A DNA stretch of 64,000 bases from an uncultured Ignavibacteria bacterium. Lineage in GTDB: Bacteria > Bacteroidota > Ignavibacteria > Tepidaquicellales > OLB5. Below the pieces are notes generated by a model, which saw only the letters and a list, made by a program, of their open reading frames with translations, made no database searches and had not been told where the DNA came from. Positions within the stretch are counted from its first letter, which is position 1. Every line of letters begins with the position of its first letter. The DNA lies in the NCBI GenBank assembly GCA_963816535.1, contig CAWFKW010000007.1, positions 85,675 through 149,674 on the forward strand. The letters run 5' to 3'. Made by a program: the position numbers and the translations under genes. Below, in pieces: positions 33,663 through 45,121 of the stretch.

Positions 33663-34055
33663 ATGAATGATGATTTTCCAAAACTAGAAGACTTAGAAAC
33701 CTGGAAACGGTGCACGGATCTAAGGAACAGGATCAGGAAGTTTACCAAAACCTTACCTTCAGAAGAAAAATTTCGACTTACAGATCAAATATTAAGAGCG
33801 TCACGTTCGATCACAAACAATATTGCCGAAGGCTACGGTCGTTTTCATTACCAGGAGAACATTCAATTCTTAAGGCAAAGCAGGGGTTCTTTGTATGAAT
33901 GCATAGACCATTTGCATGTATCACTTGATGAAAATTATTTAACTCAGGAAGGTTTTGATTCGCTCTACAGAGATTGCCTTGACTGCCTGAAATTAATAAA
34001 TGGGTATATAAAATATTTAATCAACCGAAAGACAAAAGAGCTGCATTCAAAGTAA
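33663..34055 (+). CDS. Four-helix-bundle protein (23S rRNA intervening-sequence protein family)
   Basis: 130 aa. Contains ..QILRASRSITNNIAEGYGRFHYQENIQFLRQSRGSLYE.., the family signature. Confidence 0.88.
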   Translation: MNDDFPKLEDLETWKRCTDLRNRIRKFTKTLPSEEKFRLTDQILRASRSITNNIAEGYGRFHYQENIQFLRQSRGSLYECIDHLHVSLDENYLTQEGFDSLYRDCLDCLKLINGYIKYLINRKTKELHSK

Positions 34056-34110: not shown

Positions 34111-35583
34111 CTAACGCCTGACTTGATAGTTCGGCGCTTCCTTCGTCACCATAACATCATGAGGATGAGATTCTTTCAATCCCGCGTTTGTTATCTCGAT
34201 GAACTTGGCATTTGCCTGCAGCTTGGCAATTGTCTCGCAGCCGCAATAGCCCATGGCTGATTTAAGTCCGCCCACCATTTGATATATCACATCCGCCAGA
34301 GGCCCTTTATAAGGCACCCTGCCCTCGATGCCCTCGGGCACAAGCTTGGATAGCTCCTCTTCAGGATCCTGGAAGTACCTGTCGCCGCTTCCGGCTTTCA
34401 TGGCTTCAAGCGAGCCCATGCCGCGGTACATTTTAAAGCTGCGTCCCTCGTAAAGGACCTTCTCGCCCGGTGATTCTTCCGTGCCGGCAAGCAAGCCGCC
34501 TATCATAACGCTATCAGCGCCCGCCGCAATCGCTTTGGGTATATCTCCTGTTTGCTTTATACCGCCATCGGAAATAATTGGTATATTATATTTTCTTGCC
34601 GCCTCGACCGCATTGAACACAGCCGTGATCTGCGGCATTCCAACGCCTGCAACAATACGCGTTGTGCAAATTGAACCTGCGCCAATCCCGACTTTCACCG
34701 CATCAACTCCCGCCTTAATAAGCTCCAGCGTGCCTTCGGCGGTTGCTACGTTTCCGGCGATCAGCTCAATATCAAATTTCTTTTTGATGAGCTTCACCAT
34801 TTCGATTACGCCTTGTGAGTGTCCGTGCGCGGTATCAACCACTATCACATCAACGCTTGCTTTAACAAGGGCTTTCACCCTGTCGAGCGTATCGTGAGTC
34901 ACGCCTACTCCCGCGCCGCATAACAGTCTGCCGTAGCTATCTTTAGCCGCCAGCGGGTGCTTTTTACGTTTAATAATATCTTTAAACGTAATCAGCCCTT
35001 TTATCTTTCCGTTTTTATCCACTACCGGAAGCTTTTCGACCTTGTACTTTTGCAGGATTTTTTCCGCCTGCAGTAGCGTTGTGCCCACGGGGGCAGTGAT
35101 GAGGTTTTCCGTGGTCATGAGCTTTTGCACTTTGATCTTTGGATTCGGCTCAAATCGCAGGTCGCGGTTGGTTAAGATGCCAATCAGCTCGTTTTTATCA
35201 TTCACTATCGGGAAACCGGAGATCTGGTAGCGTTCCATCAGCCGGTTAGCCTCGCCTACGGTTTGGTCGGCTTTAAGCGTGATGGGGTCCTGTATCATTC
35301 CGCTCTCGCTGCGTTTTACGCGGTCGACTTCCGACGCCTGTTTTTCTATCGACATATTTTTATGCAGTATGCCGATGCCGCCCTCGCGCGCCATAGCTAT
35401 AGCAAGCTCAGATTCCGTGACGGTATCCATAGCGGCCGATAGAATAGGAATGTTGAGATTAATGTTGCGTGTTAGACGTGTGGAAACATTTACGTCCCTT
35501 GGTAAGACCTTTGATTTTGCCGGGACCAGCAAAATATCATCAAAGGTTATTGCTTTTTCGATGATTTTACTTTTATGTGCCAT
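34111..35583 (-). CDS. guaB: IMP dehydrogenase
   Basis: 490 aa. Catalytic loop [14 protein letters not shown] pair, and ..[17 protein letters not shown].., ..YRGMGS... Confidence 0.97.
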
Positions 35584-35742
35584 AGCAAATATAGCAAAAA
35601 AGTTTTTAATTTAAAAATACCAAGAAAGAGTAGGGTAAAAAACTTTGCCACTAAGACACAAAAACACAAAGAAAATATTAAATAACAAATAGTAAATAAT
35701 AAAAGAAAATTAACCGCAAAGTTGGAAGAAGCGGAAACCCGT

Positions 35743-36378
35743 TTAACCGACTACTGGTTGACTAGAGTTTTCTTTCTTGTAACTCTTTTTTTTCTGCTTA
35801 ATAAATTTATTAATATTATGTAGCCGTGAAAAATCATAAAGAAGTGATTTTCTCATTTTGATATGAAATTCTGTTAAATAATGGAAATGATTAACTCCTT
35901 TTTCGTTTAATTTTGTGTCGGTTAGGGAATAATCAACATTTTTAATAAGAAAATTAGCAAATTCTCTTATATTCTGGACTATGTCTTCATTTAACCATGT
36001 TATTTTTTCCTGTATCTCAATGAGTTCATTTATGAAATTCTTAAATTTTTCAGCAGATTCGTACATTCGATAAAATTTATATTCACCTTGTCCACGGTAT
36101 AGATATGTTCTAAAATGATTCAAAAACTTATCTAGTGTGTTATATGAATCAAGCCTTTTGTTGTATAAAGCCTTATAATATTCATCTATATAAGTTTTTC
36201 TGTGTAAAAACCATGATAGAAATAACGAGAAAACTGAAGAAAATGTAATTGCAATAATAATAAGTACATTTGTGTCAACTAATTTAAAACCATACCAAAA
36301 ACCATGTTGTGTGTTTAATACTTTGATACTATCTATAAGTATATAGTTCGCTTGGATCAATGAATCTTGATTAATCAT
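35743..36378 (-). CDS. Hypothetical membrane-anchored protein, partner of the PHP-ATPase
   Basis: 211 aa. One N-terminal TM helix (VLIIIAITFSSVFSLFLSWFL), then a helical K/N/Y-rich soluble domain. Starts 4 nt after the stop of the 1020-aa gene. Very AT-rich. No recognisable family. Confidence 0.65.
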   Translation of the reverse strand: MINQDSLIQANYILIDSIKVLNTQHGFWYGFKLVDTNVLIIIAITFSSVFSLFLSWFLHRKTYIDEYYKALYNKRLDSYNTLDKFLNHFRTYLYRGQGEYKFYRMYESAEKFKNFINELIEIQEKITWLNEDIVQNIREFANFLIKNVDYSLTDTKLNEKGVNHFHYLTEFHIKMRKSLLYDFSRLHNINKFIKQKKKSYKKENSSQPVVG

Positions 36379-36382
36379 ATAT

Positions 36383-39300
36383 TTAGATTATGTTGTATTT
36401 GTCTTTTCTATTTCTAAAAGCCGGCTCTGTTCCTTCCAATATATCCAACGCCTTTTGTCTAATATCAAAAAATTCTATGCTACCTGATTCATAACTGACT
36501 ACATTTTTGTTATCCTTATCCATTTTTGCATGAATTATTTGTTCGGAATCGCAAACTATTGCTAAATTTGGATTATGTGTTACTATAATGATTTGTCTTT
36601 TAGTTTTAGCCTTTTTTATGAACGGTACTAATTTTTGAAAAACTGTTTCATTATCCAGATTTTCTTCTGGTTGGTCAATAATAATAGGTCTTAAGTCAAC
36701 ATCAATTAACAAATAGAATATTAACAGAAGAGTTCCTCTCTCACCGGGAGAAAGATTTTCTATTCTTCCACCAGCATATGTAATGTCAAATGATGTATCT
36801 AAATAATCAAAAGAATATAAATAATTATAGAGACGCGATCTAGAGACACTCCTCAACTGAGTATCAAGATCTACAGTTGTACTGTTGTCTTTTCCATCCG
36901 AATGATTGTTGTTCAACAATTCAATAAGTGTATCTGGCAAGCTAAGCAAACTATTTATATCGTCCTTGTCTATCTGCTTGATAACTTCATTGAATATTTC
37001 TCTGCCTTCCTCAACTCCGTAAAAAGTACCACGTCTATTTTGATTAATCAAATCAAGAAATTTGTCATCAAAATTAAACGGGAATTTCAACTTAGAATCA
37101 AAAGCAATAAATTCCATAGAACCCAGCCCAAATTCTTTCGCTTGCCCTTCAGCATATACTTTCGCGTGGTGATACATACTCGGTAAAAGATCCTTCTTTT
37201 TTATTTTCAGCTTTAAAATTTCCGAAGCACAAATTTTTCTATTTTCTTTAAATGTCTTTAAGGTATTTGGTACAACTTCATTAATTCTAAAAAGCTTAGC
37301 TTTTAGGTATTCTATTGTGTCTGGTGTATTATCATCGCCAAGTATATCCTTTTTCTTTTTTTCCCAATTTTTCAAATCTTCAATATATCTTTGGAATTCT
37401 CTATCTTTACTACTCAAAGTATCCGAAATCCTCTTGATTTCAATTTCAATTTTGGATAATTCACTGACAATTCCTTCCCTTTCGGTTTTGGTAATATTTA
37501 TGTTCTTTGTCAACTGTTCATCAATTGAGTCCAAATCAGCAAGATCTATGCTTAGATTTATTAATTTGTTAATATCGATTTTGTATTTTTCTGTTATATA
37601 GTTATCATGTAACTCTTTTCTAATATCTTCATAATTCCTTCCAAAAGACTCTAACTTTCCCTTCGTTAACTCTATTTGTTGCTTATCCTTTATAAGTTCA
37701 TCTAGATTTAATTGTAACTTATCAAGATCTTCCTTAAGCGTTCTCTCTTTTGCTTGAAATGATATCAACTCTTTTTTTGAATCTGAATCTGAGTCAGCCG
37801 TCTCTTCCGGTTTTTCCACTTCTTTTGGTTTATACTCTTCGATTGTTTTTAAGAATCTTTCTTTATCATCATGCTTATTCTTAATTTTTGTTACATTTTC
37901 CTCTTTTAATTCAACTTCATACCCCTCAATAGATTGATTAATCTCTTCAAGTCTACTTTTTTCTTGCATTAGATCACTATCGATTACCTTTGTCCTTATC
38001 TTCAATAGTTCCAATAAACTATCAGTACTTTGTTGCTCCTCTCTAGGAATGTGTGAAAAAATAACTCTGTCAATTTCACTTTGTAAGCGAGAAACATTTA
38101 AATCCTCGCAAAGCTCTTGGACAAATGATTGCGAAAGGTAAACAACTTTTGAATTGTCAACCTGTATATGCTCAGGTTTGGGAAACTCCTTTTCATTTTC
38201 AAATCCATCATAAAATCGAATCTGAGCTGCATATTTTTCTGATTCTGATAACTGTAAAAACTTTTCGGATTTTAAGAATGAGAATTGTTTTTTATCTACA
38301 TTAGCATTACCTGACATTCCTATAATGTCCGCTAAAGCACTCTTGCCGCTTCCTTTATTACCAATGATTGAAACAAGATCAATATTAATAGGAATTTCAT
38401 CAACATCATCGAACCATTCATTTTCTTTTTGTTTTGTAATCACTTTTATTTGGGTTATGAATTTATCCTTATTTTCTTCAACTATTTTCAATTTCGGAGG
38501 ATTTTCTCCGATGAAAACTCTGCTAGCAGGCTCATGAATTATCTGCTTCAGTCCTTCGAAGGTTGGGTCGGCTTTTATCCATGTTATTCTACTTCCAGGG
38601 AATTTACCATAATCATCTATTTTGTGCGCATCACTCCCTGAAAAAACAGGTTTTGCTTTACCGCCAATAGTTTTTAAAAAATTATTGAAATATTTCTCGT
38701 TCTTAGTGTTTTTTATTCCAAGAAATAGGTCTACGTTATCCGGAGTTCTTGATTCGAAAATATGAGCTTTTTGCATAAAGTAATTATCATGTAAAGGATG
38801 TTCTTCCCAATTCAATTTTTCCAATCCATCACTAGTATCATAAGGCAACGCAATTATACATTTTCCCTCCGATATATTTATCAGTGCATCATTCAGTGAA
38901 GCAATGGTAATAACAGCAGTCTTTTGACCGAGATTGAGTAAATCTTCATCGCTTAAAAACTCGGGGTCTTTAAATCCGTGCTTTGCAGCTTTGCTTTTAT
39001 CAAAACTTTTTGCTACGCTTATGAATGCCTCATTCGAGATTATTTTATCTGCTGAAAAAATCTTAAGGGAGTTTTTAAAGTCACTCAAATTTTGAGCCGT
39101 TAGTTCATCAGATAATATGGCGTGAATATTCAATCTAAAATCTGTTGGTGCTTCAATTCTAAGTTCAATTCCTGGTAGAATTGTTTTTGTACATGATATA
39201 TCAGGATTATCATTCAGAAAACTTCGTAAACCTAAATAGCCATCAAATGTCCAGTAATCCATAATCGCGAATACACTGACATCAGAAGAATTGATTTTCT

Positions 39301-39445
39301 CGACGATTCTTTTGTATGCGTCGTTTATCTCTTGGTCAGTCATTTCTGAAAAAGTTATTCCGTCATTCCAATGAAATGACGCTGGCGTATGAATGTGCAA
39401 ATCCCATTTCCGCCATTCTGAACCTCTTGGATATTTTGAAATCAT
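36383..39445 (-). CDS. PHP-domain phosphoesterase fused to a Rad50/SMC-like ABC ATPase with coiled-coil insert (Ppl/PplA-like defence-type protein)
   Basis: 1020 aa. PHP motifs WDLHIHTPAS (res 14-23), GIELR (92-96), NIHAI (106-110), SGSDAHK (269-275). Walker A GNKGSGKS (362-369; nt 38339-38362). E/K-rich coiled coil at ~480-760. ABC signature LSPGERG (898-904), Walker B IIIDQPEENLD (921-931), H-loop VTHNPN. Confidence 0.85.
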   Translation of the reverse strand: MISKYPRGSEWRKWDLHIHTPASFHWNDGITFSEMTDQEINDAYKRIVEKINSSDVSVFAIMDYWTFDGYLGLRSFLNDNPDISCTKTILPGIELRIEAPTDFRLNIHAILSDELTAQNLSDFKNSLKIFSADKIISNEAFISVAKSFDKSKAAKHGFKDPEFLSDEDLLNLGQKTAVITIASLNDALINISEGKCIIALPYDTSDGLEKLNWEEHPLHDNYFMQKAHIFESRTPDNVDLFLGIKNTKNEKYFNNFLKTIGGKAKPVFSGSDAHKIDDYGKFPGSRITWIKADPTFEGLKQIIHEPASRVFIGENPPKLKIVEENKDKFITQIKVITKQKENEWFDDVDEIPINIDLVSIIGNKGSGKSALADIIGMSGNANVDKKQFSFLKSEKFLQLSESEKYAAQIRFYDGFENEKEFPKPEHIQVDNSKVVYLSQSFVQELCEDLNVSRLQSEIDRVIFSHIPREEQQSTDSLLELLKIRTKVIDSDLMQEKSRLEEINQSIEGYEVELKEENVTKIKNKHDDKERFLKTIEEYKPKEVEKPEETADSDSDSKKELISFQAKERTLKEDLDKLQLNLDELIKDKQQIELTKGKLESFGRNYEDIRKELHDNYITEKYKIDINKLINLSIDLADLDSIDEQLTKNINITKTEREGIVSELSKIEIEIKRISDTLSSKDREFQRYIEDLKNWEKKKKDILGDDNTPDTIEYLKAKLFRINEVVPNTLKTFKENRKICASEILKLKIKKKDLLPSMYHHAKVYAEGQAKEFGLGSMEFIAFDSKLKFPFNFDDKFLDLINQNRRGTFYGVEEGREIFNEVIKQIDKDDINSLLSLPDTLIELLNNNHSDGKDNSTTVDLDTQLRSVSRSRLYNYLYSFDYLDTSFDITYAGGRIENLSPGERGTLLLIFYLLIDVDLRPIIIDQPEENLDNETVFQKLVPFIKKAKTKRQIIIVTHNPNLAIVCDSEQIIHAKMDKDNKNVVSYESGSIEFFDIRQKALDILEGTEPAFRNRKDKYNII

Positions 39446-39476
39446 AAATTTTGAATTTTATAGTTTTTGTTAAATC

Positions 39477-39515
39477 AAAAAAGGGGACCAAGGCGTAAAA
39501 CCGCCTTGTATCCCC
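39477..39515 (-). terminator. Intrinsic terminator between the DUF559 gene and the PHP-ATPase gene
   Basis: On the minus strand: ggggatacaaggcggttttacgccttggtcccc followed by TTTTTTGATTT. Plus-strand hairpin at 39483-39515, A-run at 39477-39482. Confidence 0.7.
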
Positions 39516-39720
39516 TATCACAAACATAAAAGTAACTTTTTACAAAAACAATGATTTATTGGGATTGCGGGCAGCGAACCCCCATCTCAAATCATTTTAT
39601 TTTCAGAATATTCTATGTATGTAAGCTATTGTGAATGCAAGCCTTTAGTCCCCCCTAAGGGGGGATTGGATTTTTCAAACAAAATTCATCTTCTCTATGA
39701 ACTATATGCAATCTTTAAAA

Positions 39721-40104
39721 TTATCTTTCACGGGGGTTCTGCTTTTTATCCGCTATTTCTTTTTTAATTTTTTCAAGAACATTATACATATCTTCGTACA
39801 CCATTTCATTTGTAAAACGTAAGAATGATATTCCCAAATTCTCTATTTCAGATTGTCTGCGTTTGTCATATTCTATTTCTTCGTCTGATAAATGAGTCGC
39901 TCCATCTATCTCAATGGCAAGTCTTTGCTCAGGAGCAAAAAAATCAACCACAAATGGACCCACGCCATATTGTCTTAGAAATCTTTGACCAAGTAATTTC
40001 TTATTCTTTAACTGAAGCCATATAAGGACTTCCGCTTTTGTCATGTTGTTTCTTAGCTTTCTTCTTTTCTCTTTCTCGGTCGCTTTGTTATATATTGCTG
40101 TCAT
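39721..40104 (-). CDS. DUF559 endonuclease-domain protein (Vsr/restriction-endonuclease-like fold)
   Basis: 127 aa. Contains ..LRNNMTKAEVLIWLQLKNKKLLGQRFLRQYGVGPFVVDFFAPEQRLAIEIDGATH.., typical DUF559. Confidence 0.85.
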   Translation of the reverse strand: MTAIYNKATEKEKRRKLRNNMTKAEVLIWLQLKNKKLLGQRFLRQYGVGPFVVDFFAPEQRLAIEIDGATHLSDEEIEYDKRRQSEIENLGISFLRFTNEMVYEDMYNVLEKIKKEIADKKQNPRER

Positions 40105-40124
40105 ACAGATCTGCGATTCTCAAT

Positions 40125-40736
40125 TTAATACGTTACAAAAGTTCCGACCATATCATAATAGTCCTGCAGGAGCGCGCGCCTGTCATAAGCTCTTACAGTA
40201 CCCGGGTCATAGACGCCTAAATTCGTACTGTGGATAAACAGCCTGATCCCGATACAATAAGCTCCTGATGAAACTGCATAAACAGTTTCATAGTAGTAGT
40301 TGCCGGCAGCCGCTTCATCACGTTCAGCAACAGTATATGCGACGCCGCCTGCCGTTGTGCCGGGTATTTCAGTTATTGACGTCCCGCTTTCCAGAAAATT
40401 TTTAGCGCTGGAGCCTGTGGGAAGCCACTCTACGCTTATATATGAATCGTCTATAAGGTTTGTGCCGGTGGTAAAGGCCGCAGGAACCTCAAAAGAAACC
40501 CCGGGTATTGATCCCGATGTCAAAAAAGTATAAGTATATGATGTGTTTTTAGTATAAGAGCTCATGTACTTAATTGAAAATCCAATCGCGCTGTTTTTAT
40601 ACTTCTTCCATACGGCGTTAATATTCGTAACGTTAGCGATTGATTTCCCGCTGTAACCCGTTGTGAGATCACCTGAGCAGAATGTAAGAGCCGGCATGAA
40701 AACAATTAAAGCAAATAAAAATAATGTTTTTTTCAT
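40125..40736 (-). CDS. Hypothetical lipoprotein
   Basis: The ORF track starts at 40784. The ATG at 40736 gives MKKTLFLFALIVFMPALTFCSG (signal peptide plus lipobox). No recognised family. Confidence 0.65.
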   Translation of the reverse strand: MKKTLFLFALIVFMPALTFCSGDLTTGYSGKSIANVTNINAVWKKYKNSAIGFSIKYMSSYTKNTSYTYTFLTSGSIPGVSFEVPAAFTTGTNLIDDSYISVEWLPTGSSAKNFLESGTSITEIPGTTAGGVAYTVAERDEAAAGNYYYETVYAVSSGAYCIGIRLFIHSTNLGVYDPGTVRAYDRRALLQDYYDMVGTFVTY

Positions 40737-40983
40737 ATTTTTTATTCTGGTTTTTATATTATTAAATACTGAAACTCTTAACAAACCCGGTTATCCGATA
40801 TAAAAATAGGGGCATCAGTCTTAATTACTTATTAAAACTATTTGCCCCTGGGCAATAATAAAATATTCTTTTAACAAATTCAATGATTTATTGGGAAAAC
40901 ATGACCAGCCCTCAGCAAGGCTTCTGCCTGATGGCGTGTCTTTCATGGCAGGGATTGTTGTTTATTATGATGGTTTTTTTGTA

Positions 40984-41398
40984 CGACCCCTATAGGGGTC
41001 GAATGTCTGTAGATGAAAATTTTCTATAAACGTACGACTCCAAAGGAGTCGAACAGCCCGAACTCCTAAAAGGGCGGTTGGGAATTCTATTATAGAACAA
41101 ACCATTATAGAAAATTAATTTTTGGCGAGAGAATATTTTCAATGGGGGTTTATCTTTTATAGGCGCCGAATATTGGAGTCCCAAACTGTCCGCCGCGGCG
41201 GATTGGGACTCAGGATAGAAAGATATGTCAAAGGCATGCCTTTGACCTACAAGACTTATAGCTATTTTTTCTTTGTGCCTTGGTGTCTTAGTGGCGGGAA
41301 TTCTTATAGGGCAAAGCAAATCATTCAATTTATTATTCAAAGTCTGGATTCCCGCCGGAGTTTATCCCGCACTTGATGCGGGGCGGGAATGACAGCAG
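40984..41398. repeat. Non-coding cluster of perfect palindromes/hairpins
   Basis: Elements: cgacccc-tata-ggggtcg (40984-41001); cgactcc-aaa-ggagtcg (41035-41051); gagtcccaa...ttgggactc with inner ccgccgcggcgg (41176-41211); gtcaaaggcatgcctttgac (41227-41246); ctttgtgccttggtgtcttagtggcg (41271-41296); attcccgcc...ggcgggaat (41348-41389). Confidence 0.85.
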
Positions 41399-41399
41399 G

Positions 41400-42296
41400 T
41401 TAACTACAGTCAGGTTCTTCGCAGCCGCCGTCTTTTCTTTCTGTTTCAAGAGTTATGTGACTGATATTTAAATGTTCAAGTTCGTGTTTCAATTTATCTT
41501 TTATCGCGCTTTCCTCTTTAATATCTATTTCGTTACCCAGTACTAAATGCGCGGTCAACGCATTTTCTGTCGTGCTCAGCGCCCATACATGGATATGGTG
41601 AATTTCTTCAATGCCCGAAACCTTTGACGCGCAGTCGGTTACATCTTTCATGTTTATGCCGCGCGGCACTCCGTCAAGCGTAAGCCGGAGGCTCTCCCTC
41701 AAAAGCTTCCATGTGCCAAAGAGAATAACTATCGCTATGGCAATGCTCAGAAGCGGGTCAACCCAATACAGCTTAGTATAGAAAATAATAATTCCGCCGG
41801 CAACCAGTCCGAGCGATACAACCGCGTCTGACATAAGATGGAGGTAAGCGCTTTTGATGTTAATATCGCGCTCTTTATCCTTAAGAAACATTAAGGCGGT
41901 AACGCCATTAATGATAATTCCAATAGCCGCAACAATAGCTATCACTCCGCCCGGGAGCGGCTCGGGCTGAAACAAGCGATGGAACGCTTCAAAGCTGATT
42001 GCGCCAATAGAAACAAGCAGCACTACTGCATTTAAAAGCGCTACAAGTATTGTTGTTTTCCTGTAGCCGTAAGTATATTTTTTGTTTGGTTTAACGCTCA
42101 GCAATCTGAAAGCAACAAGTGAAAGAGCAAGACTTGCAACGTCGGCAAGATTGTGGCCCGCATCGGAGAGCAGAGAGAGCGAGTTAATATAAAACCCGGC
42201 AATTATTTCTATTAGAACAAATAAAACATTAAGCGTAATCCCTATAATAAATGCGCGGTCAATGTTCTGTTTATTTGCGTGGTTATGGTCGTGCAA
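41400..42296 (-). CDS. Cation diffusion facilitator (CzcD/ZitB-type) metal efflux transporter
   Basis: 298 aa with six TM helices. Metal-site motifs LLSDAGHNLAD and HLMSDA. C-terminal cytoplasmic domain with HHIHVW. Confidence 0.92.
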   Translation of the reverse strand: MHDHNHANKQNIDRAFIIGITLNVLFVLIEIIAGFYINSLSLLSDAGHNLADVASLALSLVAFRLLSVKPNKKYTYGYRKTTILVALLNAVVLLVSIGAISFEAFHRLFQPEPLPGGVIAIVAAIGIIINGVTALMFLKDKERDINIKSAYLHLMSDAVVSLGLVAGGIIIFYTKLYWVDPLLSIAIAIVILFGTWKLLRESLRLTLDGVPRGINMKDVTDCASKVSGIEEIHHIHVWALSTTENALTAHLVLGNEIDIKEESAIKDKLKHELEHLNISHITLETERKDGGCEEPDCS

Positions 42297-42450
42297 GCTT
42301 ATTACGGGAGCCTTTCTTTAATCGTCATTATTTCGGATTCGTGTTTCATTATACAAATATAAGGAATACTGTTTGATGGATTTCAGGAATAAATAAGGAG
42401 CGTTTTTTGCGGCTCGTTCGGGGAACGAGCCCTACCGAAGCAATAAAGGG

Positions 42451-42957
42451 TTACTTCCCTTTCTTCCATGTTCTTGCCATGAAGCGGCCTCCGGCGCCGG
42501 AGAGATGATGTATTGCACGCGCGGCATTGCGCCGGCGCGCCTCATCTGATTTAAGCGCTGCGAAATATCTTAGTATTTCCTTTTGACGGCTGGGCGTTAA
42601 CTCTTTCCATGCCGATTTCGCTTTCGGAGTTTTGTTTAATTGTTTACCGAACCATATTGGAATTGGGTGCATTGGTCCGTTACGGTATGCTGAATCAAAT
42701 TCGACCTCAACTTTTACTTTATCGTTAACCTTTGTGCCGGATGCTTTGCGCACAACTCCGGCCAGGTAAAGATAGTAACTTCCGTCGCCGACGGGCATCA
42801 TATTGATACGCCATGCATTTTCCGGTTTTCCGTTTACGCGAACAAGAACGGGCATTGGTTTACGCCAGCCGGATTTTATTTTTGCGGCCCTGGTTTTGCT
42901 TACCAGAACAAACGGATTAACGTCGCGTATTTTTATCTCTGCGTTAAATTTTATCAT
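42451..42957 (-). CDS. DUF1905 + YdeI/OmpD-associated family protein
   Basis: 168 aa. The N-terminus MIKFNAEIKI...GWRKPMPVLVRVNG is DUF1905-like. The C-terminus ..LTPSRQKEILRYFAALKSDEARRRN.. is YdeI-like. Confidence 0.75.
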   Translation of the reverse strand: MIKFNAEIKIRDVNPFVLVSKTRAAKIKSGWRKPMPVLVRVNGKPENAWRINMMPVGDGSYYLYLAGVVRKASGTKVNDKVKVEVEFDSAYRNGPMHPIPIWFGKQLNKTPKAKSAWKELTPSRQKEILRYFAALKSDEARRRNAARAIHHLSGAGGRFMARTWKKGK

Positions 42958-43227
42958 GGATAGCGCTATGATAATAAAAAAATATTCATATTAAAAAGAT
43001 TTAATAAGCGGCGGGAATCAATTTAAATCCCCCACATTCGTCATAGACATGTCATTGACCAGCACCCGCAGTTGTCAGGCCCGTCTGAGCCGGGTAAACA
43101 TGCCTGACAACTGCAAAGTGAGGTATGACATTTGCAGAAGTAAAATCACCCAATCTCACTGTTTTGTTGTTTAAAGTTAAGCTATCTTGAACGTGTTGGA
43201 ATTATACAAAATATCAGCGGGATTATT

Positions 43228-43569
43228 ATGATATACAAAAAGGCATCTATCAGCTCCAATTCAATCAAAAGAGAATTATTGCTGGGTTTTGATTTTATTG
43301 AGAAATATATACGGCAGAAAAAATCAGCGGCTCCTATAATTTCTTTACACTGCAAATATGAAATCAATGATATTTGGGAAAAAACTGTCACATTTTACCT
43401 TGTCTCTAATGACACGGCAGATGTGAGCCAGTTCATAGAGAAATGGAAATTTGAAAAAGTGAGCGCTCTGCCTCCGTCTCTTGTGCATATTCTGGGTAAT
43501 TACGGGGCCAAAGTAAAAGAAATTGACAGGTCGAAATTTGAAAATAATTTTTTCAAAACGCCGGCATAA
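43228..43569 (+). CDS. Hypothetical protein
   Basis: 113-aa ORF in an otherwise empty 830-nt gap. No recognisable motif or clear SD. Confidence 0.4.
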   Translation: MIYKKASISSNSIKRELLLGFDFIEKYIRQKKSAAPIISLHCKYEINDIWEKTVTFYLVSNDTADVSQFIEKWKFEKVSALPPSLVHILGNYGAKVKEIDRSKFENNFFKTPA

Positions 43570-43789
43570 ATATATTCTTTAGCGCTCAGGATCAGAACTC
43601 ACTTCAGGCTTCTTTGATCTATTCAAGAAATTATTCTTACAACTCTAACGCCAGCTGTACTTATGAATTCAATTTTAAGTAATTGCATTTATTTATATTT
43701 TTGAAAATATAAAAACGGATATTCTCACTTCGCACTGCAGCCGGAAGGCGCATCGCGAAAATTCAGCAATTTCCCAAATCAAGAAATAG

Positions 43790-45121
43790 ATGGATGCTTA
43801 CCTGATACACCGGATACAATTTTCGTTTACAGTGATGTTTCACTATATATTCCCACAGCTTACTATGGGGCTCGCGGCGCTTATTGTTGTCCTGAAAATA
43901 TTGGCTGTACGAAAACATGACGAGCATTATAATAAAGCCGCAAGGTTCTGGGCCAAAATATTCGCTTTGAATTTTGCGATCGGGGTTGTGACAGGAATTC
44001 CCATGGAGTTTCAGTTCGGCACAAACTGGGCGAAGTTCTCGGCGTTTTCAGGCGGAGTTATCGGACAAACCCTGGCAATGGAAGGCATGTTCGCTTTCTT
44101 CCTTGAATCGGCATTTCTTGGGTTGTTTCTCTTCGGTGAGAAAAAAATAGGGCCAAAGTGGCACCTTGTTTCGGCGTTCCTGGTGTTCATAGGTTCATGG
44201 ATATCAGGTTTCTTCATAATCGCAACAAATGCATGGATGCAGCTTCCGGTCGGTTTCAACCGTGCGGCAGACGGAACATTTCAGCTGGCAAATTTCGGCG
44301 AGCTGATGACAAATCCCTGGCTCTTCTGGCAATATGTGCATAACATGAGCGGAGCAGTTGTGACAGCATCATTTGTTATGGCGTCGCTTGGAGCATATTA
44401 CATGCTTTCGAACAAGCATACCGATTACGCAAAGACATTTTTGAAGCTCGGGATAATTTCAGGTGTAATTGTTTCGATATTCCAGGCGTTTCCAAGCGGT
44501 GACGGACAGGGAAAGAACGTCGCGCTTTACCAGCCGACGACTCTATCTGCAATGGAAGGACTTTTCGAAACCGAGCATGGCGCTTCGCTTGTAATTTTAG
44601 GGCAGCCCGATATAGAAAAACTTACGCTTGATAACCCGATAAAAATCCCGAATCTGCTCAGCTTTCTTACATATAGCAGATGGAAAGCAGAAGTGAAAGG
44701 ATTAAAAGAATACCCGCGCGACAGGTGGCCGGATAATATTCCCCTGCTCTATTATAGCTATCATATAATGGTTGGATTGGGAACAATATTTATCGGAATC
44801 ATGCTTATAGGCGCTTTTCTTTTGTGGCGTAAAAAACTTTTTACAGCCAGATGGTTTATGTGGATATTACTGTTAAGCTTTCCTTTCCCGTATATAGCCA
44901 ACACCGCCGGATGGATGACCGCAGAGCTTGGAAGGCAGCCGTGGCTGATATATGGGTTGCTAAGAACTTCTGAAGGAATGTCAACAAACGTCAGCTCCGG
45001 TAATGCGCTCTTCACATTGCTCGGGTTTGCAGGAATATATTTGCTTCTGGGGATATTGTTTATTGTGCTTGTGATAAAAGAAATTAATCACGGTCCGGAT
45101 AATGGAAAGGAGCATGCTTAA
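43790..45121 (+). CDS. cydA: Cytochrome bd-type quinol oxidase subunit I
   Basis: 443 aa. Contains ..QFSFTVMFHYIFPQLTMGL.., ..GVVTGIPMEFQFGTNW.., ..ELGRQPWLIYGLLRT... Short Q-loop type. Confidence 0.95.
   Translation: MDAYLIHRIQFSFTVMFHYIFPQLTMGLAALIVVLKILAVRKHDEHYNKAARFWAKIFALNFAIGVVTGIPMEFQFGTNWAKFSAFSGGVIGQTLAMEGMFAFFLESAFLGLFLFGEKKIGPKWHLVSAFLVFIGSWISGFFIIATNAWMQLPVGFNRAADGTFQLANFGELMTNPWLFWQYVHNMSGAVVTASFVMASLGAYYMLSNKHTDYAKTFLKLGIISGVIVSIFQAFPSGDGQGKNVALYQPTTLSAMEGLFETEHGASLVILGQPDIEKLTLDNPIKIPNLLSFLTYSRWKAEVKGLKEYPRDRWPDNIPLLYYSYHIMVGLGTIFIGIMLIGAFLLWRKKLFTARWFMWILLLSFPFPYIANTAGWMTAELGRQPWLIYGLLRTSEGMSTNVSSGNALFTLLGFAGIYLLLGILFIVLVIKEINHGPDNGKEHA

Follow-up and report, generated by a model that had tools for sequence, protein, structure and literature searches.

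A stand-alone TrlF-family ATPase gene with a fused PHP domain, beside a small membrane-protein gene, in an AT-rich block of an Ignavibacteria genome

The stretch of 64,000 nucleotides (nt) analyzed here (contig CAWFKW010000007.1 of an uncultured Ignavibacteria bacterium; hereafter the window) carries two adjacent minus-strand genes encoding a protein of 1020 amino acids (aa) and a 211-aa membrane protein. Judged by profile scores, the large protein belongs to the TrlF family, which is already catalogued and named by NCBI annotation, and not a Ppl protein. It is a stand-alone copy of TrlF, and the small gene behind it is probably no dedicated partner. The locus probably represents a stand-alone TrlF nuclease-ATPase that would act as a single-gene, Ppl-like defence and lies beside an unrelated mobile membrane-protein gene. 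The cassette is a routine addition to a named family, and the side leads are a composite operon found around TrlF in other genomes and the family of small membrane proteins to which the 211-aa protein belongs.

Family assignment and architecture of the large protein

The NCBIfam model NF045780 ("TrlF family AAA-like ATPase") matches the 1020-aa protein with 590.7 bits at a cutoff of 350. The alignment joins residues 7–1018 of the protein to positions 1–944 of the 944-position profile, so that this equivalog model is passed end to end. In contrast, the NCBIfam Ppl model NF042955 reaches 102.2 bits at a cutoff of 1000 and covers C-terminal stretches only, and the sister model Spaf_1101 fails with 128 bits at a cutoff of 475. 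The preliminary description of this DNA had considered the gene to be a Ppl-like system, an identity which these scores do not uphold. The Pfam and PADLOC profiles through which it expected to recover the domains give a partial picture: Pfam SMC_N falls just short of its threshold (33.1 bits vs. 40), the PADLOC Ppl hidden Markov model (HMM; PDLC02208) matches the C-terminal half only (87 bits, residues 583–1015), and the Pfam PHP model PF02811 finds no match at E ≤ 0.1. TrlF relatives are numerous (more than 6,500 at E ≤ 1e-10) and occur in many phyla with a patchy distribution.

The AlphaFold2 model of the protein (predicted local distance difference test score, pLDDT, 88.9) exhibits an N-terminal domain of the alpha/beta type and an ABC head that is split. 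Long antiparallel helices (residues 486–537, 554–613, 636–702, and 711–771) account for about 300 residues and form a coiled-coil arm of 299 aa, where no CxxC zinc hook is present. Foldseek searches of the PDB matched the heads of SMC, JetC, Rad50, MukB and Lamassu LmuB (E 1.4e-8 to 1e-4, probability 1.0), with 5xei at E 1.4e-8 and 7zr1, 9qxx, 7nyw, and 9hqu as further matches, and related the N-terminal domain to the PHP domain of RNase AM (7ug9; E 1.3e-4, probability 1.0, target TM-score 0.59). A sequence-profile search of the PDB likewise linked the ATPase region to Rad50 and SMC heads. PDB sequence searches returned nothing for the PHP region, whose fold is thus seen by the fold search alone. 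At the level of the modelled fold, the fusion of a PHP domain with an ABC head of the Rad50/SMC type and a coiled coil of about 300 aa is confirmed, including the separation of the two halves of the head by the long coiled coil that had been read from the letters.

The catalytic residues are in place. Conservation was assessed in alignments of 36–42 diverse TrlF family members, where D15, H17, H19, D63, E94, D272, and H274 are invariant (42/42), as are K368, Q439, S899, G901, D924, and H957; the Walker B residue E927 is kept in 41 of the 42. The motifs present are DLHIH (residues 15–19), GIELR (92–96), NIHAI (106–110), and SGSDAHK (269–275) on the PHP side and GNKGSGKS (362–369), LSPGERG (898–904), IIIDQPEE (921–928), and VTH (955–957) on the ATPase side. 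All motifs named in the preliminary description were found where it had placed them, apart from VTH, for which residues 957–959 had been given.

The resemblance to Ppl noted earlier is nevertheless borne out by collinear homology to Ppl of E. coli. The sequence used (WP_021514893.1, named "anti-phage protein Ppl" by PGAP) stems from an E. coli IncF plasmid. BLASTP aligns two blocks, namely the PHP domain with Walker A (TrlF residues 8–396 vs. Ppl 4–326; 24% identity, E 7e-11) and the C-lobe of the ATPase (TrlF 881–1016 vs. Ppl 756–892; 32% identity, E 9e-18). The C-lobe is the part closest to Ppl, with an hhalign probability of 99.8%. Both proteins are single polypeptides with an N-terminal PHP and a C-terminal NTPase domain in collinear order, both share a variant SPGE/SPGQ signature motif, and both are carried on mobile DNA. 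However, Ppl is 125 aa shorter than the TrlF of the window, the coiled coils cannot be aligned, and some 40% of TrlF genes in the wider family belong to multi-gene operons resembling restriction-modification (R-M) systems, which are not described for Ppl. Sequence comparison therefore places TrlF and Ppl as distant sister families with one architecture.

Further likenesses are found among nuclease-ATPase machines and defence systems. SbcCD and Mre11-Rad50 also combine an ATP-gated, Rad50-type head and coiled coils with a metal-dependent phosphoesterase nuclease, and Rad50 heads rank among the top matches in both the sequence-profile and the fold search. TrlF may thus be regarded as, in effect, a one-chain analogue of these machines; unlike them, it has its PHP domain fused in cis instead of a separate calcineurin-fold Mre11/SbcD subunit, lacks the zinc hook and is an accessory rather than a core gene. 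Lamassu LmuB, Wadjet JetC, and PARIS AriA, which are likewise known from a defence context, match the head and coiled coil of TrlF structurally, but work with separate effector subunits and have no fused PHP domain.

Genomic company of the two gene families

Whether the two genes of the window belong together was assessed from the company their relatives keep. The comparison covers 82 TrlF loci, 80 from species-representative genomes and two contigs of the closest homologue, and 35 loci of the small family (13 uncultivated viral contigs, 17 metagenome contigs, and five look-ups of closest relatives). HMMs of both families were run reciprocally on six-frame translations of all loci. No small-family gene was detected in the TrlF loci (0/82) and no TrlF gene in the small-family loci (0/35). 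The four closest relatives of the small protein adjoin other genes, and the nearest relatives of TrlF (L081 and L001) are without the small gene. A conserved two-gene system is therefore not supported. The preliminary description had proposed a cassette of TrlF and a membrane partner, and had itself named beforehand the lack of such conservation as the outcome that speaks against it. The small gene is probably no dedicated partner of TrlF, with which it would be co-transcribed by accident of insertion.

The company of TrlF itself carries the signature of defence-island cargo. About 30 of the 80 species-representative loci (~40% of the sample) belong to one derived, mostly proteobacterial clade with the gene order SNF2(DrmD-like)-TrlF-AbiU/AIPR-Type III Mod(-Res). 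In this clade, the end of the helicase gene (DrmD-type SNF2) and the beginning of TrlF share 15 nt, and TrlF is followed by AbiU/AIPR (~595 aa) and/or Type III Mod, often with Type III Res. One example is the operon of Nitrosomonas europaea ATCC 25978 (L045). With TrlF at its centre, this arrangement resembles a composite restriction/abortive system that has no name so far, and the SNF2-TrlF-AbiU/AIPR-Mod-Res operons are a candidate composite restriction system. Type III Mod and Res also lie directly behind the closest homologue of the window TrlF (52% identity), and two Motilimonas loci show the order Mod-Res-TrlF. The remaining 40 non-redundant loci have 139 flanking genes in 114 Pfam families, of which phage integrase, N6_N4 methyltransferase, ResIII, Fic, Type I R-M subunits, transposases, PIN, and Mrr are the commonest. 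Many plasmid proteins are annotated as TrlF by PGAP, and most of the plasmid records matched (TrlF and Ppl pooled) are conjugative. The probable defence role suggested earlier is in keeping with this family context of R-M, Abi and integrase genes.

The copy in the window is placed in a basal, partner-less part of the family tree. Genes of Type III R-M and DISARM-like operons (DrmD-type SNF2, Mod, Res, AbiU/AIPR) are the usual partners of its relatives, but none of them occurs in the 64-kb window, where remnants of methyltransferase, helicase or AIPR genes were not found either. Solo copies such as this one raise the question of how a Ppl-like nuclease would tell self from non-self without a methyltransferase.

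Two further TrlF homologues stand out by their reading frames. One, in the Patescibacteria group (L027:6001-9126), has 41 TGA codons in frame but neither TAA nor TAG; since several of the TGA codons fall on glycines conserved in the family (e.g., in FPGIELR and WTFDGY), the gene points to the use of genetic code 25 (UGA = Gly). The other, from a single-cell Patescibacteria genome (L057:6001-9068), is split by a frameshift near codon 199 into frames of 199 and 870 aa, which reflects either a pseudogene or a sequencing error.

The 211-aa reading frame is no chance frame, as a stop-free run of this length is improbable in the local composition: a probability of 4.6e-9 was obtained for 211 open codons in this composition, and none of 2000 shuffles reached this length. 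In a word-index search, the small protein recovered only itself and appeared to be an orphan, a status overturned by an exhaustive HMMER search of 1.84 billion representatives. This yielded 167 relatives, 22 of them at E ≤ 1e-10 and all 150–230 aa in length. Conserved features of the family are an N-terminal transmembrane (TM) helix, followed by YKxEYYKKxIxKRL, the residues W128 and G161, and a C-terminal DLxxLHxIxKF. The AlphaFold2 model (pLDDT 90.7) shows a long helix that extends out of the membrane, together with a beta-hairpin and a bundle of helices, consistent with the single TM helix and subsequent helical domain described earlier. The basic HRK...KKR stretch after the TM helix predicts, by the positive-inside rule, that the C-terminal domain is cytoplasmic. 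No significant sequence match was found in Pfam, NCBIfam, PHROGs, PADLOC or the PDB, the weak ones being PADLOC CARF_TM (E 0.0056) and a PDB profile match at E 0.069. By fold, Foldseek recovered generic helical bundles only (best E 0.85 in the PDB and 0.14 in BFVD).

Relatives of the small protein were not found in cultured phage genomes or plasmids. In all 13 uncultivated viral contigs, the small-family gene occupies an accessory-gene position, with the late transcriptional regulator (phrog_36) on one side and the terminase genes (small and large subunit) on the other. In two other loci, the gene lies behind a Type IIG R-M enzyme of 1250–1277 aa with the domain order DUF7149-DUF7814-Eco57I-TaqI_C (L109:1659-8579 and L097:1783-7804). 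The first of these also encodes an 807-aa AlbA_2 + NB-ARC (Avs-like) protein and constitutes a compact defence island. Elsewhere, the neighbours are AbiTii, HicA with a PycTM gene nearby or an NYN nuclease, and at some loci unrelated genes. At L117:821-2024, the relative P0126 is preceded by an overlapping 208-aa open reading frame (ORF) of similar size which is not recognized by the family HMM.

Judged by these relatives and their neighbours, the 211-aa gene is an independently mobile accessory gene of an undescribed, unannotated family of N-terminally anchored membrane proteins. Neighbourhoods with Abi, toxin-antitoxin and R-M genes and the prophage slot hint at a defence or exclusion role, and our best guess is phage exclusion or abortive infection at the level of the membrane. 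The 211-aa protein defines an unannotated family and can reasonably be proposed as a candidate new phage-exclusion factor.

Two explanations would nonetheless make the small protein a partner of TrlF in this lineage. It has been suggested that TrlF senses or cuts foreign nucleic acid and that the 211-aa protein serves as its effector, anchor or regulator, which would form a true two-gene system if the pairing has arisen locally. Only 4 nt separate the two genes, which share a strand; a strong terminator lies upstream of TrlF, and none was found between the genes or after the small one. Both are extremely AT-rich, both families live in modular, defence-flavoured neighbourhoods, and the pair is present again in a second assembly of the same organism. 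Against this stands the absence of co-occurrence reported above, which includes the nearest relatives of both proteins, and the small family thrives alone in phage genomes. We therefore consider such a system rather unlikely. It is similarly doubtful, and if anything slightly more so, that the small proteins form a widespread new family of stand-alone phage-exclusion or abortive-infection genes, of which one was recruited here by a solo TrlF as its membrane partner, so that a two-gene system specific to this lineage arose.

Possible function of the window TrlF

Ppl of E. coli is a single-gene 3'-5' exonuclease acting on single-stranded DNA. It is inhibited by nucleoside triphosphates bound to its PHP and NTPase domains, and becomes activated by nucleotide depletion and 3'-OH ends (review PMC12904381). 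With Ppl and the Rad50-type machines as models, we infer the substrate, the trigger and the defence phenotype of TrlF as follows. Two copies would dimerize via ATP-sandwiched heads, and the heads together with the coiled coils would recognize foreign DNA ends or structures. The PHP domain might then degrade this DNA as an exonuclease whose activity is gated by nucleotide binding, as has been reported for Ppl. TrlF would thus be a single gene that protects the cell from the DNA of phages or plasmids.

The name TrlF stems from the temperature restriction locus (TRL) trlR-trlF-trlG of Photorhabdus laumondii, in which TrlF is annotated as histidinol phosphatase (PMC7554251). By analogy with this locus, TrlF could instead belong to a stress-triggered growth-arrest or toxin-like module and not be an anti-phage nuclease at all. 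The TRL operon restricts growth at 36°C, its deletion lifts the restriction and complementation restores it (PMC7554251). Photorhabdus TrlF and the window protein have in common the layout of PHP domain, ABC ATPase and coiled coil as well as the same invariant residues. However, the window contains neither TrlG (AlbA_2 + HATPase_c_4) nor a TrlR gene, and its host belongs to a different phylum (Ignavibacteria). The window TrlF is flanked by the DUF559 gene, the 211-aa TM protein gene and guaB, and does not lie in a TRL operon. Moreover, the mutations selected in TRL were all in trlG and none in trlF, an auto-active defence system would also arrest growth on induction, and the usual neighbours of TrlF are R-M and Abi genes. 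A growth-arrest module is thus quite unlikely.

Several observations weigh against a TrlF nuclease defending the cell on its own. The N-terminal domain escapes the Pfam PHP model, and H108 is a histidine in 26 of the 42 aligned family members and a glutamine in 14, so that the chemistry could differ from that of classical PHP nucleases. The lack of the methyltransferase and helicase partners found with the nearest relative leaves the discrimination between self and non-self unexplained. The study of the TRL suppressors, all located outside trlF, assigns no function or phenotype to TrlF (PMC7554251), and a biochemical activity or anti-phage phenotype has been demonstrated for no protein of the family. 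Finally, the 4-nt spacing and the shared AT-richness would also fit a functional pair that evolved locally. In view of the family context and the invariant residues described above, a single-gene defence by TrlF is still the reading we hold to be probable.

The AT-rich block and its transcription signals

TrlF and the small gene lie, together with a DUF559 gene, in a block which stands out by its composition (Table 1). The GC content is 0.26–0.36 inside the block and 0.44–0.51 outside, with sharp edges. By gene, it amounts to 0.26 for the 211-aa gene, 0.32 for TrlF, and 0.34 for DUF559, compared with 0.50 for guaB and 0.41–0.44 for the other neighbours, which agrees with the AT-richness relative to the surroundings pointed out earlier. 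At third codon positions (GC3), TrlF has 0.27 and guaB 0.55. An independent second assembly of the same organism shows an identical arrangement of the cassette. Related Ignavibacteria (L120-L125), whose GuaB proteins are 88–89% identical and which keep the order guaB-HU-S49 peptidase-TPR-BatA as in the window, lack the block at the syntenic guaB site. All three islet genes are missing upstream of guaB in these relatives, where either a sigma-70-like gene with cydAB or a SIMPL gene is found. Due to its low GC content and its absence from the syntenic site, the cassette is regarded as accessory, and it is horizontally acquired DNA in a variable guaB-cydA interval. The foreign, AT-rich origin assumed in the preliminary description is borne out by the composition step and the empty guaB site. 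No tRNA, integrase, flanking direct repeats or Rfam element delimiting the islet were found. None of the 82 TrlF loci carries a DUF559 label, and DUF559 is not linked to TrlF outside this block.

These findings make it highly improbable that the large protein is an AT-rich housekeeping enzyme of DNA repair and a functional analogue of SbcCD or RecN, for which the fusion of a nuclease-type domain to a Rad50/SMC-like head with coiled coil and the housekeeping genes on both flanks might speak: the gene is not present at this site in close relatives, is patchy across phyla and frequent on conjugative plasmids, differs from guaB in GC3, and has R-M, Abi, integrase and transposase genes as neighbours in other genomes. 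A housekeeping repair family in a conserved core context, the finding that the preliminary description had set against a defence role, is not what the empty site and the patchy distribution reveal.

Table 1. Coordinates of the features discussed, given as positions of the window unless a locus is named.
Feature	Position	Strand	Basis or remark
AT-rich accessory block, ~4.5 kb (DUF559 + TrlF + 211-aa gene)	~35590-40110		between guaB and lipoprotein-like gene
211-aa membrane-protein gene	35743-36378	-	homologue family, single TM helix
TM helix of small protein, residues ~36-58	36205-36273	-	Kyte-Doolittle 19-residue windows >1.6 only here
TrlF-family gene, 1020 aa	36383-39445	-	NCBIfam NF045780 score, AlphaFold2 model, Foldseek
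ATPase head C-lobe, residues ~776-1020, LSPGERG 898-904, Walker B 921-928, H957	36386-37120	-	invariant residues, Ppl similarity
Antiparallel coiled-coil arm, residues ~477-775	37121-38017	-	model helices, 42% charged
ATPase head N-lobe, residues ~330-476, Walker A G362-S369, Q-loop Q439	38018-38458	-	invariant residues, PDB profile matches
PHP domain, residues ~8-325, ligands D15/H17/H19, E94, D272/H274	38471-39424	-	invariant ligands, fold match 7ug9
Intrinsic terminator, hairpin + U6	~39471-39516	-	folding energy vs. shuffles
DUF559 gene (Vsr-like endonuclease fold)	39721-40104	-	Pfam DUF559, E 3.4e-27
SNF2-TrlF operon loci (L018, L026, L030-L035, L041-L054, L058, L059, L063, L071, L074)	e.g. 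L045:3083-10768
Viral-contig slots of small-family gene	L085:6963-10736, L092:7524-11181, L084:7974-10726

Both reading frames of the cassette had been correctly located, and their spacing is confirmed: the TAA stop of TrlF (36383–36385) and the ATG of the small gene (36378) are 4 nt apart, separated by ATAT. A terminator between the DUF559 gene and TrlF, likewise proposed earlier, is evident as a hairpin followed by U6; its folding energy is -24.8 kcal/mol (z = -5.08), a value matched by none of 200 shuffles. A search for terminators between TrlF and the small gene, as well as after the small gene, found none, and the two genes are probably co-transcribed. The distance between the U-run and the TrlF ATG is only ~25 nt (39446–39470, minus strand), and no convincing TrlF promoter was found within this interval. 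The TrlF transcript may be leaderless, start inside the terminator region, or rely on read-through.

Weak use of Shine-Dalgarno (SD) sequences is usual in the Ignavibacteria lineage. The absence of SD sequences noted for the cassette is correct for both genes but not distinctive, as an SD-like core is present in just four of the 22 long ORFs of the window and its lack at the cassette is thus a genome-wide trait. A simple terminator scan had missed the hairpin upstream of TrlF and instead called a plus-strand terminator at a G6/C6 palindrome in the DUF559-TrlF spacer. This perfect palindrome (C6-TTA-G6, 39649–39664) was rejected as a terminator, since its fold as minus-strand RNA does not reach significance (z = -0.57); it may represent either a repeat or a bidirectional element.

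The surroundings of the block show further differences from the related genomes. The guaB-cydA interval (window 35583–43790) appears to be a variable hotspot: it spans 8.2 kb here, as opposed to ~1.7 kb in L120-L122, and in addition to the islet carries genes for a CDF transporter and a DUF1905 protein as well as the lipoprotein-like gene. On the other side of guaB, between this gene and the HU gene, lies a 130-aa gene on the plus strand (33663–34055) for a "23S rRNA-intervening sequence protein" (PF05635, E 2.6e-33). It is not present at that position in L120-L125 and therefore represents a second small insertion beside the islet.

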